Shown piece after piece: positions 3,992 through 24,476 of a stretch of DNA of 32,000 nt. This DNA is from Caedibacter taeniospiralis (GTDB lineage: Bacteria; Pseudomonadota; Gammaproteobacteria; Francisellales; Francisellaceae), in the NCBI RefSeq assembly GCF_002803295.2, contig NZ_PGGB02000002.1, forward strand, positions 133,222-165,221, in the 5' to 3' direction. The notes beneath the pieces were generated by a model, which saw only the letters and a list, made by a program, of their open reading frames with translations, ran no database searches and was not told the DNA's origin. The stretch's first letter is position 1, and each line of letters begins with the position of its first letter. The position numbers and the translations under genes were made by a program.

Positions 3992-5047
3992 ATGATGACA
4001 CGTGTTCTCCCATTCATCCTCTGTGCTGTAGGTTTTCTGCCGCTCTCAATTTCTGCTGCGAACCTCCTCACGGCAGATGAAAAAAATTTTAGTGCTTACG
4101 CATCCCTTACCGCAGTCAATGAAGCAACGCTTTCGAGCAAACTAGCAAGCAGCATTGAGAATATCTTCTTTCGTCCAGGAGAAACTTTTAAAAAAGGCGA
4201 TGTGTTGATCGCATTTGACTGTGAAGAAATACAGTTAGAGCTGGATAAAGCCAAAGCGGATTTCAAGTTGAGTGAAGCGGTGTTAAAAAGCACCAAGGAT
4301 TTGAGGAAGTTGAATTCGGCGAGTAATCTGGAAGTGGCTAAGGCAGAAGGTGAGCATGAACGTAATATAGCACAAGTGCGCTTATTACAATTCAAAGAAA
4401 AGCAATGCAAACTGACAGCCCCTTATGATGGTGAGACCATTGTACAAGAGGTTAATGCGCATGAGACGGTAAAAATAGGGGATCCGCTACTGACGATTGT
4501 GAACAATCAGTCCTTGGAAGTGGAAATCTATGTCCCTTCTATTTGGCTGAAGGACATCCATATTGGCTCTTCTTTCCAGTTGCACCTTGATGAGTTTAGC
4601 CTAGACAAGACCTTTCATGGAGTCGTCACACAAATTGTCGATCGTATTGATCCTGCCAGTCAATCTGCCTTAATTTATGGCAGGCTGCAAAATAATACAG
4701 GGCTTTTTGCAGGAATGAGTGGTGTTGCGCAATTTGAAGTTAATTCTCCAATTAACGAATCAGCTAAAAGTCCAGGTATAATGAGTTCTTTGCTACCTCA
4801 GGATATTATGTCGGTAGTTAATGATTGGAGCTACCCACTTTCGCTGCACTACCCCGCCTCGCAGGCTCGGCACCCCTTCACCAGTGAAGGGGAATTTGGG
4901 GAATGCGTGTCGCTTAATTCCCCTTCACTGGTGAAGGGGTGGACGCAAAGCGGACGGGGTAGTCTTCAAAACCAGCAAAAGTGCATAACTTCAGTGAGTG
5001 AAGCGCATATCAATTCCGATTTAATGACAAATACGAAAGGATCATGA
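3992..5047 (+). CDS. Exported HlyD-family periplasmic adaptor (membrane fusion protein); C-terminal ~100 aa reads through a palindromic repeat element
   Basis: AAGGAGG RBS. Signal-peptide-like N-terminus (LPLSISA-AN). Lipoyl/barrel-sandwich halves (FFRPGETFKKGDVLIAFD ... KLTAPYDGETIVQEVNAHETVKIGDPLLTIV) flank a coiled-coil hairpin, followed by a beta-barrel. ATGA overlap with the next gene. Confidence 0.8.
   Translation: MMTRVLPFILCAVGFLPLSISAANLLTADEKNFSAYASLTAVNEATLSSKLASSIENIFFRPGETFKKGDVLIAFDCEEIQLELDKAKADFKLSEAVLKSTKDLRKLNSASNLEVAKAEGEHERNIAQVRLLQFKEKQCKLTAPYDGETIVQEVNAHETVKIGDPLLTIVNNQSLEVEIYVPSIWLKDIHIGSSFQLHLDEFSLDKTFHGVVTQIVDRIDPASQSALIYGRLQNNTGLFAGMSGVAQFEVNSPINESAKSPGIMSSLLPQDIMSVVNDWSYPLSLHYPASQARHPFTSEGEFGECVSLNSPSLVKGWTQSGRGSLQNQQKCITSVSEAHINSDLMTNTKGS
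4849..4962. repeat. 114-bp nested-palindrome (MITE/REP/RPE-like) element inside the 3' end of the HlyD gene, in frame
   Basis: Termini ctaccccg ... cggggtag. Two internal hairpins, ccccttcaccagtgaagggg and ccccttcactggtgaagggg, are reverse complements of each other. 114 nt = 38 codons with no stop. A related half-copy lies at 24410-24476. Confidence 0.7.
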
Positions 5048-6387
5048 TCGTGCAGGATGTTTTGCTGAACTTATTATCCATACAGCAGGCGCTGAATAAA
5101 ATTAAAAAACTTCGTGAGCTTGCCTTCTTTATCAGTCATCAAACCAAATCAGTTATCGACTATGATCGAGCCATCGTGTGGTCAGTCAATCACTGGGATC
5201 ATCCGCATGTGCTATCCGTTTCGGGGGTAACACAGCTTGATCGCCATAGTGACTATCAGATTAAATTCGATCATTTTATTTCGCTGATCCTGAAATCATA
5301 TAAAACCACCAGCGACACCCTAATCATTAAACACAGTGAGGTGTCGGATAAATTGGCGGAGCTTTGGCCTGATAATTTGAGTGACAAGCTACTGCTGTAT
5401 TTTTTTAAAGACCGTCATCAACGCATCTCAGGTGGCATGATTCTTTCCTCAACAGATGGGTTTAATGAACAAACCACCAAACAGCTGGAGTGGCTTGTTG
5501 AGGCGTACCAGGAAAGCTGGCAAAGGCTGTCTCATCCAAGTAAGCTTGTGCATAAACTGCTGTTTTATTTCACCTTGAAACGTGCCATTGTCTGGGCGGT
5601 CGTATTGATCGCATTGCTATTGATGCTGGTCAGGGTGCCAGAGACGACAGTTGCTCCAGCTTCCATTATTGCCAAGGATCCCTTTATTGTCACAGTTCCT
5701 ATGGAGGGGGTGATTGAAAAAATAGAGGTATTCCCCGACCAAACGGTTGTTGCGGGGGATTTACTCTTTAGTATGGATAAGCGTGATCTTAAGAACGCTA
5801 GTGAGCTTGCTAAGCGTGAGCTTGCCACCGCGGTTGCCAAGTATAAAACGGCAATTCAAAGTGGTTTTGAGGACGTGAAAAAACGCGCAGAAATCAAGGT
5901 ATTGCAGGCACAAATCAGTGAAAAGGAACTGGAGGTCGATTACACAAGCCATCTGCTGCAGGAAGCCGATGTCAAAGCTGAAGTTGCAGGAATTATTGTA
6001 CTTGATAATAAAAACAGATGGATAGGCAAACCCGTGTCAACAGGTGAAAATATCATGCAGATCGCAGATAGTAATAGAGTCGAAATTGAGATATCGCTGC
6101 CAGTGGATCACGCTATTTTTTTCCACCCAGGTGACAAGGTGAAACTATTTTTAAATGCTGATCCCTTAAACCCTGTTTTGGGTACGATTGAATACAGCAG
6201 CTTTGAGGCAGCGATCGTGAATTCCAACATTTTGGCTTACCAAATCATTGCCAGTATTGACCGAAATCAAAGTGCTCCGCGCATTGGTAGCCAGGGAACG
6301 GCAAAAATCATCGGGAATAATGTCAGTCTGTTTTATTACTTGTTTAGAAAGCCAATCAGTAGTTTCAGGCAATTTACGGGGTGGTAG
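5044..6387 (+). CDS. Bitopic HlyD-family adaptor with a ~170-aa cytoplasmic N-terminal (GAF-like?) domain and one TM helix
   Basis: 447-aa ORF. TM helix AIVWAVVLIALLLMLV. Periplasmic part has HlyD hallmarks (PMEGVIEKIEVFPDQTVVAGDLLFSMD ... coiled coil ... VKAEVAGIIVL ... GENIMQIAD). The N-domain assignment is by pattern only. Confidence 0.75.
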   Translation: MIVQDVLLNLLSIQQALNKIKKLRELAFFISHQTKSVIDYDRAIVWSVNHWDHPHVLSVSGVTQLDRHSDYQIKFDHFISLILKSYKTTSDTLIIKHSEVSDKLAELWPDNLSDKLLLYFFKDRHQRISGGMILSSTDGFNEQTTKQLEWLVEAYQESWQRLSHPSKLVHKLLFYFTLKRAIVWAVVLIALLLMLVRVPETTVAPASIIAKDPFIVTVPMEGVIEKIEVFPDQTVVAGDLLFSMDKRDLKNASELAKRELATAVAKYKTAIQSGFEDVKKRAEIKVLQAQISEKELEVDYTSHLLQEADVKAEVAGIIVLDNKNRWIGKPVSTGENIMQIADSNRVEIEISLPVDHAIFFHPGDKVKLFLNADPLNPVLGTIEYSSFEAAIVNSNILAYQIIASIDRNQSAPRIGSQGTAKIIGNNVSLFYYLFRKPISSFRQFTGW

Positions 6388-6390
6388 ACC

Positions 6391-8010
6391 ATGTTAGTCA
6401 GTATGAATAAATTACCACCCTTTCTTCCCCCATTGCGTGAGGATATTCATCTGCAAGAAGGAGGACAGGATTTTAATGGTGGACCCACCTGGATCATTCA
6501 CGACAAAGTCAGCGCTCAGTTTTTTCATTTGGGTTGGAAGGAATATGAAATATTGAGGCATTGGCAAGCCATTGCACCAACTGAGTTTCTCATCAAGCTT
6601 AAAAAGGAATCATTGGTAGAGGCAACAGAAGAAGATTTGGTAAAAATATTGCATTTTTTGTCGACAAATTGTCTTATTGAGCAAAATGTGGAAACTATGC
6701 AAAAGCTCTATCAAAAGCAGCATGGTAAGCAACTGAATTTTTTCCTGTATCTCGCGAAAAATTATTTATTTTTCAGGATTCCCCTTGTGCATCCGAACGA
6801 CTTTTTAGATAGAATCTACCCGTATACGCGCTTTATTTTTACGAAAAGCTTTGCATTGATCATGCTTTTTTTTGCGCTTATGGGGCTTATCCTTTTAATG
6901 AGAGAGTGGACACAGTTTACCCATACCTTCTTTGCATTTTTATCCTTTAAATATATTTTGCTCTATGCCATTGCCTTGGTGTGCGCCAAGAGTTTTCATG
7001 AGTTTGGGCATGCGCTCATGAGTAAGAAATATGGGCTTAATATTCCCTCCATGGGGGTGGCTTTTCTTGTCATGTTTCCCATGCTTTATACCGATACCCA
7101 GGAAAGCTGGCAGATCAAATCCCCTAAAGAGCGCATTACCATAGCTCTGGCGGGTATTATGATGGAAGTGTATATCGCTATCATCGCTATCTGGTTGTGG
7201 CTTTTCTTACCTGATGGGGCATTAAAAAGTATCTGTTTTTTTCTTGCTACCTATAGCCTTTTAACCACGCTGCTCATTAACATCAGTCCGTTTTTACGCT
7301 TTGATGGCTATCATGTTCTCTCTGATCTTTTATCCATGCGTAATTTGCAAACCAGAAGCTTTGCGCTTATGCGCTGGCGTTTACGTAAACTTTTGTTCGG
7401 CTTCAAAGATCCAGCACCAGAAGCCTTCACAGCACATAAGCAAAAAATTTTGATGCTATACGCCGTCGCTACACTTATTTATCGATTTGTACTTTTTTTG
7501 AGTATTGCTATCCTGGTTTACTATTTATTCTTTAAGATGCTCGGCATCGTTCTATTTGCGATTGAAATCATCTATTTCATTTTGCTGCCTATCTGTCGTG
7601 AGCTTAAGGTGTGGTATGACATGCGCGCGAACGTTCGTTTAAACCGAAATACCGTTATTTTAAGCGTGACTCTCGTTGTACTCCTGGGTGTGTTGTTTAT
7701 TCCATGGCAATCCACCGTCAGCATGCCTGCCACACTATCCTATCAAAGCCAGACGCTCTTTAGTGAGCTCCCTGCCAAAGTAAAAACCGTTAGAGTAAAA
7801 AAAGGGCAACAAGTTAAAGCAGGCGATGTCTTAGTAATCCTTGAATCCCCTGAGCTTGACTTTAGGATTCAAAAAACACGGTCGCTGCGAGCCATGGAGA
7901 GCGGAACGCGAGGGCGAGTAGACCCGGGTAGCCTTGCGCTGTTGATCAGCAAGCGACGTGCCGAAGGCGCCAGAGCGAAGTCTGTGAAACAGCTTTTACC
8001 CAAGGCGTAG
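6391..8010 (+). CDS. M50 (site-2-protease family) intramembrane zinc metalloprotease with a PqqD/RRE-like N-domain and the start of a C-terminal HlyD domain; reading frame runs into a repeat insertion and terminates
   Basis: HEFGH zinc motif at 6997-7011. NISPFLRFDGYH (NxxPxxxxDG-type) motif from 7279. Multiple TM helices. From aa ~455 a HlyD lipoyl half (VKTVRVKKGQQVKAGDVLVILESPELD). The last ~43 aa (from ~7879) are encoded by GC-rich repeat DNA, ending at TAG 8008-8010. Confidence 0.85.
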   Translation: MLVSMNKLPPFLPPLREDIHLQEGGQDFNGGPTWIIHDKVSAQFFHLGWKEYEILRHWQAIAPTEFLIKLKKESLVEATEEDLVKILHFLSTNCLIEQNVETMQKLYQKQHGKQLNFFLYLAKNYLFFRIPLVHPNDFLDRIYPYTRFIFTKSFALIMLFFALMGLILLMREWTQFTHTFFAFLSFKYILLYAIALVCAKSFHEFGHALMSKKYGLNIPSMGVAFLVMFPMLYTDTQESWQIKSPKERITIALAGIMMEVYIAIIAIWLWLFLPDGALKSICFFLATYSLLTTLLINISPFLRFDGYHVLSDLLSMRNLQTRSFALMRWRLRKLLFGFKDPAPEAFTAHKQKILMLYAVATLIYRFVLFLSIAILVYYLFFKMLGIVLFAIEIIYFILLPICRELKVWYDMRANVRLNRNTVILSVTLVVLLGVLFIPWQSTVSMPATLSYQSQTLFSELPAKVKTVRVKKGQQVKAGDVLVILESPELDFRIQKTRSLRAMESGTRGRVDPGSLALLISKRRAEGARAKSVKQLLPKA

Positions 8011-8292
8011 AGTAGAATCGGAGGAGTGTTGTCCGTTCGGAATGAGCGTAGCGAATTTGTGAGGACATGCCGAGGAGGCGGACGGCAGGCGCCAGAGCGA
8101 AGTCTGTGAAACAGCTTTTACCCAAGGCGTAGAGTAGAATCGGAGGAGTGTTGTCCGTTCGGAATGAGCGTAGCGAATTTGTGAGGACATGCCGAGGAGG
8201 CGGACGGCCCGGGCAAAATTTATACCGCCGAGGATAGCCGATTCGATTTTGTGTATGGATATACAAAATCTATCATGAGGCCCGAGGCACCC
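7879..8292. mobile_element. ~414-bp GC-rich non-coding insertion interrupting the M50::HlyD gene (boundaries +/- a few bp)
   Basis: Sharp change from AT-rich coding sequence to GC-rich sequence at ~7879 and back at ~8292. The HlyD-domain reading frame stops making sense at 7879 and resumes in another frame at 8279+. Contains a tandem repeat and a hairpin gattttgtgtat/atacaaaatc (8244-8269). Confidence 0.6.
7966..8207. repeat. Tandem direct repeat, 2 copies of a 122-bp unit (7966-8087 and 8088-~8207)
   Basis: The string ggcgccagagcgaagtctgtgaaacagcttttacccaaggcgtagagtagaatcggaggagtgttgtccgttcggaatgagcgtagcgaatttgtgaggacatgccgaggaggcggacgg occurs twice head-to-tail. cccggg sites flank it at 7923-7928 and 8208-8213. 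Confidence 0.9.
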
Positions 8293-8983
8293 TAATCAGA
8301 TCGAAGAAGTACAATGGCAATTACGCAATATTGCTCATTTTCAGAAAGATTTACAACAGCAGGAAACACTCAAAAGCACCCTAAGATATAATCAAACGGA
8401 GCTTCAATATCTTCGTGAGAAAAAGGCAAGTCTTATAGTCAAAGCCCCCTTTTCTGGTGTCATTGAGTCGCTTTCAGAAGATATGCGTCCCAATGCCTGG
8501 GTTAAAAAACGCCAGGCGATGATGATACTGGTGAATAAAGATACGGTTATTTTGCATGCTTATCCAAGTAGTGCTGACTATGAGAGATTGCAGGAGGATC
8601 AACAAGGTCAGTTTATTCCCGAAAATATTGATCTTCCGAACCTTCAGGTCGGTATTTCAAATCTATCAAAGCACAATGTCAACGAGCTTTATACCTTAAA
8701 TCAAGACCACGCCGAAAATCGTTTTATCAGATCTTCGGCTCCCCTTGGCGCTTATCACGCTTCAAACTTAGGTGGCAGTATTGCTGTAACGCAAAATAGT
8801 GAGCAGCAAATTATCCCAAATATCAATACCTTTATTATTTCTCTCAAAGTGAGTCCCCCTATGGGCTATCCCCTGGAAAATGTGGTGCGTGGCAAAGCAT
8901 TTATTACAGTTGATAGCATATCGATAGCTTCCTATATCACGCGACATATTTTAATCTTTTTTGTCAAGGAAAGCGGATTTTAA
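8279..8983 (+). pseudogene. 3' fragment of the split M50::HlyD gene (rest of the HlyD adaptor domain); no start codon until ATG 8483
   Basis: Frame 2 is open from 8279 (after TGA 8276-8278). My translation PRHPNQIEEVQWQLRNIAHFQKDLQQQETLKSTLRYNQTELQYLREKKASLIVKAPFSGVIESL... is the coiled-coil hairpin plus second lipoyl half expected after ...VLVILESPELDFRIQKT upstream. The ORF track lists only 8483-8983. Confidence 0.7.
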
Positions 8984-14522: not shown

Positions 14523-14664
14523 ACACCAAAGTTTGGGTTTTTAATAGATTTATTTTGGGCATTGACAATAGCTTTGCTCATAATGACGCATTGTGTGGGG
14601 CGTATTGCAAAAGATGAAACGATAGTGTGGGTTATAATAAATAGAGAATAGTCTAATTCAATGG

Positions 14665-15293: not shown

Positions 15294-16080
15294 TTAGACT
15301 TGGTTGAGTTGGAGTGAGTATTTATCTTGTGAGGCGAGCACCTGGAATTTAGCACGATATTCATTTAAGGCTTGCTTATCAAACTCATGACACAGCACAC
15401 CTTGGGTTTTAGGTGGAAGCTTCGCCATGATCTCACCGTCGAAATGAACGCATAGACTGTCGCCACTGTAATCAAATCCTAAACCATCTGTGCCAACGCG
15501 GTTACATCCAACAACATACACTTGATTTTCAATAGCGCGTGCAACTAAAAGTGAACCCCAGTGCTTGCGTCGTTTACTTGGCCAACTGGCAACGTTGAGT
15601 AAGAGATCATGGTCATTATTATTGCAATTAAAGACGGGAAAACGTAGATCAAAGCAGATGCTCAGCAGAATTCTGAAATTTTTATAGGTGACGATCACAC
15701 GTTTATTGCCCGCATCGAGCAATTTGTGTTCATCGGATAAAACAAATAAGTGGCATTTATCATAATGCCATATGCCACCTCCTGGCGTGATAAAAATAAA
15801 GGCGATTAACAGGTTTTTGGGCATCATTTAAAACAACGACACTGCCAGTGACTGCCGCATTTTTAGCTTGTGCTTGCTGCATAAGCCAGGTGATGATCTC
15901 ATTTTGATCAGTGACCGCAATTGCCAGATTGGGAGTGAAACCAACGTTAAACATTTCGGGTAATACGATTAAATCGCAAGGGTTTATGCTGCTAATCACT
16001 TTCTCAAAATGTGCATAATTTGCTGTTTTATCTTCCCAGGCGAGATCTGATTGAATCACTGCTACTTTTAAACTTGACAT
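15294..16080 (-). pseudogene. yafV: Omega-amidase / carbon-nitrogen hydrolase YafV-like, split by a 1-nt frameshift near 15791-15801
   Basis: ORFs 15760-16080 and 15294-15827 together align along E. coli YafV (LPEMF..GF; ...FITPGGGIWHYDKCHLF...; CFDLRFPVF; ARAIENQVYVVGCNRVG). The frames switch within ccTTTaTTTTTat. Removing one T restores VNRLIFITPGGG. Confidence 0.8.
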
Positions 16081-24364: not shown

Positions 24365-24476
24365 TCACCCTCTTCGCCAACGAAGGGTGATTTTCGGAAA
24401 GCTTGTCACTAATTCCCCTTCACCAGTGAAGGGGTGGCTGCTTGCCTGACCACTTTAAAGTGGTCAGGCGGGGTAG
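24365..24476. repeat. Cluster of hairpin/palindromic repeats in the yidC/parC convergent spacer, including a half-copy of the 4849-4962 element
   Basis: Hairpins tcaccctcttcg..cgaagggtga (24365-24390), ccccttcaccagtgaagggg (24415-24434) and the perfect 24-bp palindrome cctgaccactttaaagtggtcagg (24445-24468), then cggggtag (24469-24476). aattccccttcac..gtgaaggggtgg and cggggtagt match 4916-4963. Confidence 0.7.

Follow-up and report, generated by a model that had tools for sequence, protein, structure and literature searches.

In the peptidase-containing ABC transporters (PCATs) of double-glycine-leader bacteriocins, a cytoplasmic leader-recognising protease is coupled to export through a membrane fusion protein (MFP, or periplasmic adaptor) and an outer-membrane factor (OMF). 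The same logic is proposed here for three coupled genes, g1, g2 and g3, found in a 32,000-nucleotide stretch of DNA (the window) from Caedibacter taeniospiralis, an endosymbiont of Paramecium, and for their relatives in other genomes. PCATs pair an ABC transporter with a C39 cysteine peptidase, whereas the g3 system combines an M50 metalloprotease with a domain resembling a RiPP recognition element (RRE; RiPP, ribosomally synthesised and post-translationally modified peptide) and has no ATPase.

Among characterised proteins, g3 is most like the MpaP family of daptide biosynthesis (NF041824; Ren et al. 2023, PMC10036551), in which an N-terminal RRE is likewise fused to a site-2/M50 intramembrane protease that removes an N-terminal leader with a short conserved motif, much as is proposed below for the leader of a giant protein. 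MpaP lacks the adaptor domain of g3 and comes from RiPP clusters of Gram-positive bacteria, which also encode modifying enzymes and small precursors; the present module has neither. It is a closer RRE-protease precedent than Bacillus subtilis YydH, which had been put forward in a preliminary description of the window. The YydH/LiaK epipeptide maturation protease (NF058609) resembles g3 as an M50-type membrane protease in peptide maturation, with the RRE and adaptor domains of g3 falling outside the alignment. Tripartite efflux and type I secretion systems (transporter, MFP and TolC-like OMF; PMC8277102) share MFP folds of the MacA, EmrA, MexA and HlyD kind with the module, and a dedicated OMF is present beside giant repeat proteins in most g3-orthologue operons. 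These systems need an energised ABC, RND or MFS transporter, however, which is absent from the window and not conserved in orthologous loci; a TolC-like OMF is likewise absent from the window. The module further differs in its three different adaptors and in having as inner-membrane partner a protease fused to an adaptor.

We take the module to be that portion of a widespread but uncharacterised envelope system which resides in the inner membrane and periplasm, with the copy in the window inactivated, and rate this reading, with its full mechanism, at about even chances. In full form the system would comprise a giant LEPR-XLL/DUF4347 repeat protein, a TolC-like channel and g1, g2 and g3. While domain content, gene linkage and lesions are matters of observation, for the mechanism we infer the following course: the cytoplasmic RRE domain of g3 would bind the N-terminal leader of the giant protein, in which LEPRxLLDGA comes after a basic stretch; the M50 site within the membrane would cleave this leader, and the three adaptors would couple cleavage to the outer-membrane channel, allowing export or display of the giant protein in the absence of an ABC, RND or MFS pump. 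The cytoplasmic domain of g2 may gate the process.

Architecture of the three genes

The three genes lie 3' of ddl'-ftsQ-ftsA-ftsZ; beyond g3, the opposite strand carries rbfA-infB-nusA-rimP (Table 1). Open reading frames (ORFs) bear out the tight coupling noted earlier, with an ATGA overlap of g1 and g2 at 5044 and a 3-nt gap between g2 and g3 (6388-6390). All three products match HlyD_3/HlyD_D23 in Pfam and are as such periplasmic adaptors. The assignment of g1 as a signal-peptide adaptor held: it scores 113 bits with TIGR01730 RND_mfp (cut-off 94.9; Pfam and NCBIfam searches) and residues 1-28 form a hydrophobic, signal-like segment. Its orthologues are about 250-300 aa long.

Table 1. Coordinates of the module, its motifs and its insertions in the window
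Feature	Position	Strand	Remarks
g1, short periplasmic adaptor (MFP) with signal-like N-terminus and altered C-terminal tail	3992..5047	+	RND_mfp, HlyD_3, HlyD_D23
g2, cytoplasmic GAF-like domain, one transmembrane helix, adaptor; intact	5044..6387	+	HlyD_3/HlyD_D23
g3 5' part: RRE-like domain, site-2 protease/M50 membrane core, last transmembrane helix, adaptor start	6391..7882	+	
g3 3' part: remaining adaptor (hairpin, beta-barrel, C-terminal helix)	8295..8983	+	In-frame after excision; MacA/EmrA/MexA structural matches
RRE/PqqD-like domain of g3, aa ~17-95 (predicted)	6439..6675	+	AlphaFold2 model, Foldseek, daptide_HExxH coverage
HEFGH zinc-binding motif of g3	6997..7011	+	H203, E204, H207 invariant or nearly so
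NISPFLRFDG (NxxPxxxxDG), second site-2 protease motif of g3	7279..7308	+	
Insertion splitting g3, 412 bp, non-coding	7883..8294	.	Absent from sister strain L001
Insertion in g1 3' end, 178 bp, palindromic	4842..5019	.	Absent from sister strain L001

The g3 protein matches Peptidase_M50 (PF02163, 42.4 bits, cut-off 27.2) and Biotin_lipoyl_2/HlyD in Pfam. Both protease motifs are intact in the window copy, as had been stated, and are conserved across 108 homologues; together with a polytopic core of about seven transmembrane helices in the model they mark g3 as a Peptidase M50/site-2 protease. The full-length model (predicted local distance difference test, pLDDT, 90) shows the RRE-like domain, the membrane helices and then the adaptor, which resembles MacA, EmrA and MexA (E 1e-10 to 1e-12). 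The C-terminal adaptor domain of the preliminary description was thus found both in Pfam and in structural matches.

An RRE-like N-terminus had also been suggested, with AlphaFold and Foldseek as the check. The model of residues 1-135 (pLDDT 80) has three strands (19-26, 32-38, 43-47) followed by helices (49-56, 63-73, 80-92), and TbiB1 and CteB, both RRE proteins, rank first among its PDB matches (probability 0.98-1.0, TM-score to target 0.63-0.66). Pfam PqqD was not matched at E<=1. An RRE/PqqD-like fold is supported by the predicted structure, and the NCBIfam model of the daptide RRE-site-2 protease (NF041824, daptide_HExxH) spans residues 31-399 at 6e-43. The score of 147.3 bits lies below the cut-off of 300, and g3 is by this measure a homologue of the daptide intramembrane metalloprotease and not a member of the NF041824 equivalog. 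The YydH/LiaK model covers residues 137-320 (1.7e-10, 41 bits against a cut-off of 225).

In g2, about 170 cytoplasmic residues precede a single transmembrane helix (aa ~171-206) and the adaptor domain, and this part of the earlier account stands. The GAF assignment, placed at aa ~20-160, fared less well. No Pfam GAF or GAF_2 match was obtained for the window copy, and a PDB profile search with the N-terminus matched no GAF structure. Pfam GAF is matched by 7 of 57 orthologues and GAF_2 by 4 of 57; one orthologue, 28% identical to the window g2 over its full length, scores 29.9 bits with GAF, above the cut-off (L005). These matches weakly support a GAF identity for the domain.

Gene neighbourhood and the giant proteins

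The g3 family is large: it has more than 1198 close matches, occurs in the representatives of at least 598 species and, at E<=1e-30, comprises 5704 cluster representatives. Neighbourhoods were counted in those 61 loci where 4.5 kb or more of sequence precedes g3. The proposed three-gene conservation was borne out, as g2 is adjacent in all 61 and g1 in 57. A TolC-like OMF adjoins in 51 of the 61 loci, contrary to the claim that the system has no outer-membrane channel, and an ORF of at least 1000 aa is found in 44. The absence of a pump proved general: no ABC/RND pump is a conserved neighbour in the surveyed orthologous loci, and ABC-ATPase-like ORFs occur in 6 of 84 loci, mostly non-adjacent. 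Next to the module in the window there is no ABC, RND or OMF gene, and no giant repeat-protein gene lies beside it. The gene order in Fangia is OMF-g1-g2-g3-giant, and other carriers of the full operon include Marinobacter, Marinomonas, Chromobacterium and Pseudomonas sp. Among the 120 best matches to the OMF none is named Caedibacter, while Cysteiniphilum, Facilibium and Fastidiosibacter each have one. In Marinobacterium sediminicola (L003:2788-8657) a transposase apparently interrupts the giant gene, and genes for a response regulator and a 7TMR-DISM histidine kinase lie 3' of g3.

The giant repeat proteins beside the module carry DUF4347 and LEPR-XLL (NCBIfam NF012209). A basic stretch followed by LEPRxhhDGA was seen in 19 of 20 visible giant N-termini, whereas 10 of 10 cyanobacterial DUF4347 proteins have no LEPR motif, and no g3 system was found in the two cyanobacterial DUF4347 neighbourhoods checked. 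Because the conserved neighbour is a giant protein with a conserved N-terminal motif and not a pump, the N-terminal leader of the giant protein, rather than the small peptide first supposed, is the likely substrate. Type I secretion substrates use a C-terminal signal, unlike the giant proteins, whose conserved signal is N-terminal. A Caedibacter DUF4347 search with the Fangia N-terminus returned proteins of at most 613 aa and missed the query itself, and is uninformative.

Two residues of DUF4347, a His (SHG) and a Cys (YGC), are invariant in the alignment (L064:282-1100, L016:12289-13300) and could form a catalytic dyad. Apart from designed TIM barrels, which are spurious, the only PDB profile match to its fold was chain 9qpe_G, a type VI secretion effector of Pseudomonas aeruginosa (PA0256) that carries DUF4347 too. 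Residues 12-20 of g3 (window 6424-6450) contain a conserved LPxLRxDL that is loosely like the LEPRxLLDG leader of the giants; that it could be a pseudo-substrate is pure speculation.

Lesions in the window copy

The window copy was compared with that of sister strain L001 (about 96% DNA identity). As read, g3 consists of two ORFs (6391-8010 and 8483-8983) within a gene spanning 6391-8983, the first running into the 412-bp insertion to a stop at 8010. The interruption described earlier is real, but its limits of 7879-8292 are corrected by the sister strain to those of Table 1, with an ambiguous left edge (7883-7894). Its length is 1 mod 3, and within it a 122-bp segment is perfectly duplicated in tandem (7965-8208, Tandem Repeats Finder). 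Once it is removed in silico, g3 encodes 726 aa and shares 96% identity with the intact protein P0001.

Damage is not limited to this one insertion, as a second had been overlooked in g1. It replaces the last ~9 residues with an unrelated tail of ~68 aa and contains perfect 26-nt inverted arms (4871-4896 and 4916-4941). The palindrome, CCCCTTCACCAGTGAAGGGG (4871-4941), recurs between yidC and parC with a shared 20-mer at 24415-24434, which suggests a small repeated element of the REP/MITE-like kind (repetitive extragenic palindrome/miniature inverted-repeat transposable element). Neither insertion has a match in Rfam.

The lesions of L001 are different, namely a stop at g1 codon 19 and a 1-nt deletion in g2. 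Ratios of nonsynonymous to synonymous divergence (dN/dS) between the strains are 0.05-0.22 in g1-g3, the range of the flanking housekeeping genes, and on this ground the lesions are recent and strain-specific; a long-decayed remnant was rejected for the same reason. The window accordingly holds a recently inactivated partial copy with g3 split, the tail of g1 replaced and no adjacent channel or giant gene.

Over the 5' part of g3 (6391-7882) the two strains show a synonymous divergence of 0.36, as against 0.03-0.13 in flanking genes, and recombination there is possible. Elsewhere in the window, a CN_hydrolase/nitrilase-like gene (15294-16080, minus strand) is split into ORFs of 177 and 106 aa and is likely a pseudogene in this strain, L001 having one 261-aa gene; a 98-bp stretch beside tRNA-Met (14544-14641) is absent from the sister strain. 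A promoter and terminator scan gave matches at or below chance.

Alternative explanations and implications

Several points weigh against the proposed system. No energy source or inner-membrane channel was identified for the operon in the surveyed loci, the link between LEPR and RRE is drawn from gene neighbourhood only, the Foldseek E-values of the RRE matches are weak (~0.05) and gene calling in the neighbourhoods was crude, taking the longest ORFs. Cysteiniphilum keeps g1-g2-g3 apart from a stand-alone OMF, and the low dN/dS implies that the Caedibacter module was under selection until recently with neither channel nor giant gene adjacent; the function of the Caedibacter module could therefore differ. 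A literature search turned up incidental mentions and no description of the system, in line with the earlier statement that no system of this architecture has been characterised.

Outside this system, RRE domains are to our knowledge confined to RiPP biosynthesis, and the nearest characterised relatives of g3 are RiPP leader peptidases. Both facts speak for maturation and export of a small peptide or bacteriocin, in which the RRE-M50 protein cuts a short precursor for export by the adaptors. Yet among ORFs of at least 80 aa in 80 neighbourhoods neither a small ORF nor a modifying enzyme is conserved, the partner with the conserved N-terminal motif is a giant protein and the daptide match is under the family cut-off, which leaves this explanation improbable. 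Rather less improbable, albeit still unlikely, is regulated release or signalling, whereby the giant protein takes a different way out of the cell and the GAF-like domain controls the site-2 protease, which cuts either a regulator or the N-terminal anchor of the giant protein, by a logic analogous to LapD/LapG control of LapA. Site-2 proteases classically serve regulated intramembrane proteolysis, g2 bears a sensory-type cytoplasmic domain and the operon is without an energy source, all as release would have it; three adaptors with a dedicated TolC-like channel are, on the other hand, the signature of a trans-envelope conduit, and no alternative secretion genes are conserved near the module in the surveyed loci.

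That the module is a fragment of an ordinary ABC, RND or MFS efflux or type I secretion operon, its pump lost or located elsewhere, would agree with public records, which annotate all three proteins as efflux adaptors, and with the RND_mfp score of g1. It is rejected, and indeed essentially excluded, because the neighbourhood counts show no conserved pump: the pump-less architecture recurs in all 61 surveyed loci, and the polytopic membrane domain is supplied by g3 itself.

The envelope system that we favour is built from parts of known kinds in a new combination. More tentatively, and with odds distinctly against it, the five genes may constitute an unrecognised ATPase-less trans-envelope secretion pathway, in which the RRE reads the LEPRxLLDGA leader of giant adhesin-like proteins and the protease-adaptor fusion cleaves that leader and hands the protein to a conduit of three adaptors and a TolC-like channel. 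In the window, the system is seen to have been lost recently, and in a strain-specific way, from an endosymbiont of Paramecium. If the proposal is true, giant surface proteins would be exported or processed in thousands of Gram-negative lineages without an ABC, RND or MFS motor, which raises the question of what powers translocation. RRE domains would then extend from small-peptide biosynthesis to protein sorting, the LEPR-XLL motif would gain a function and DUF4347 a context.

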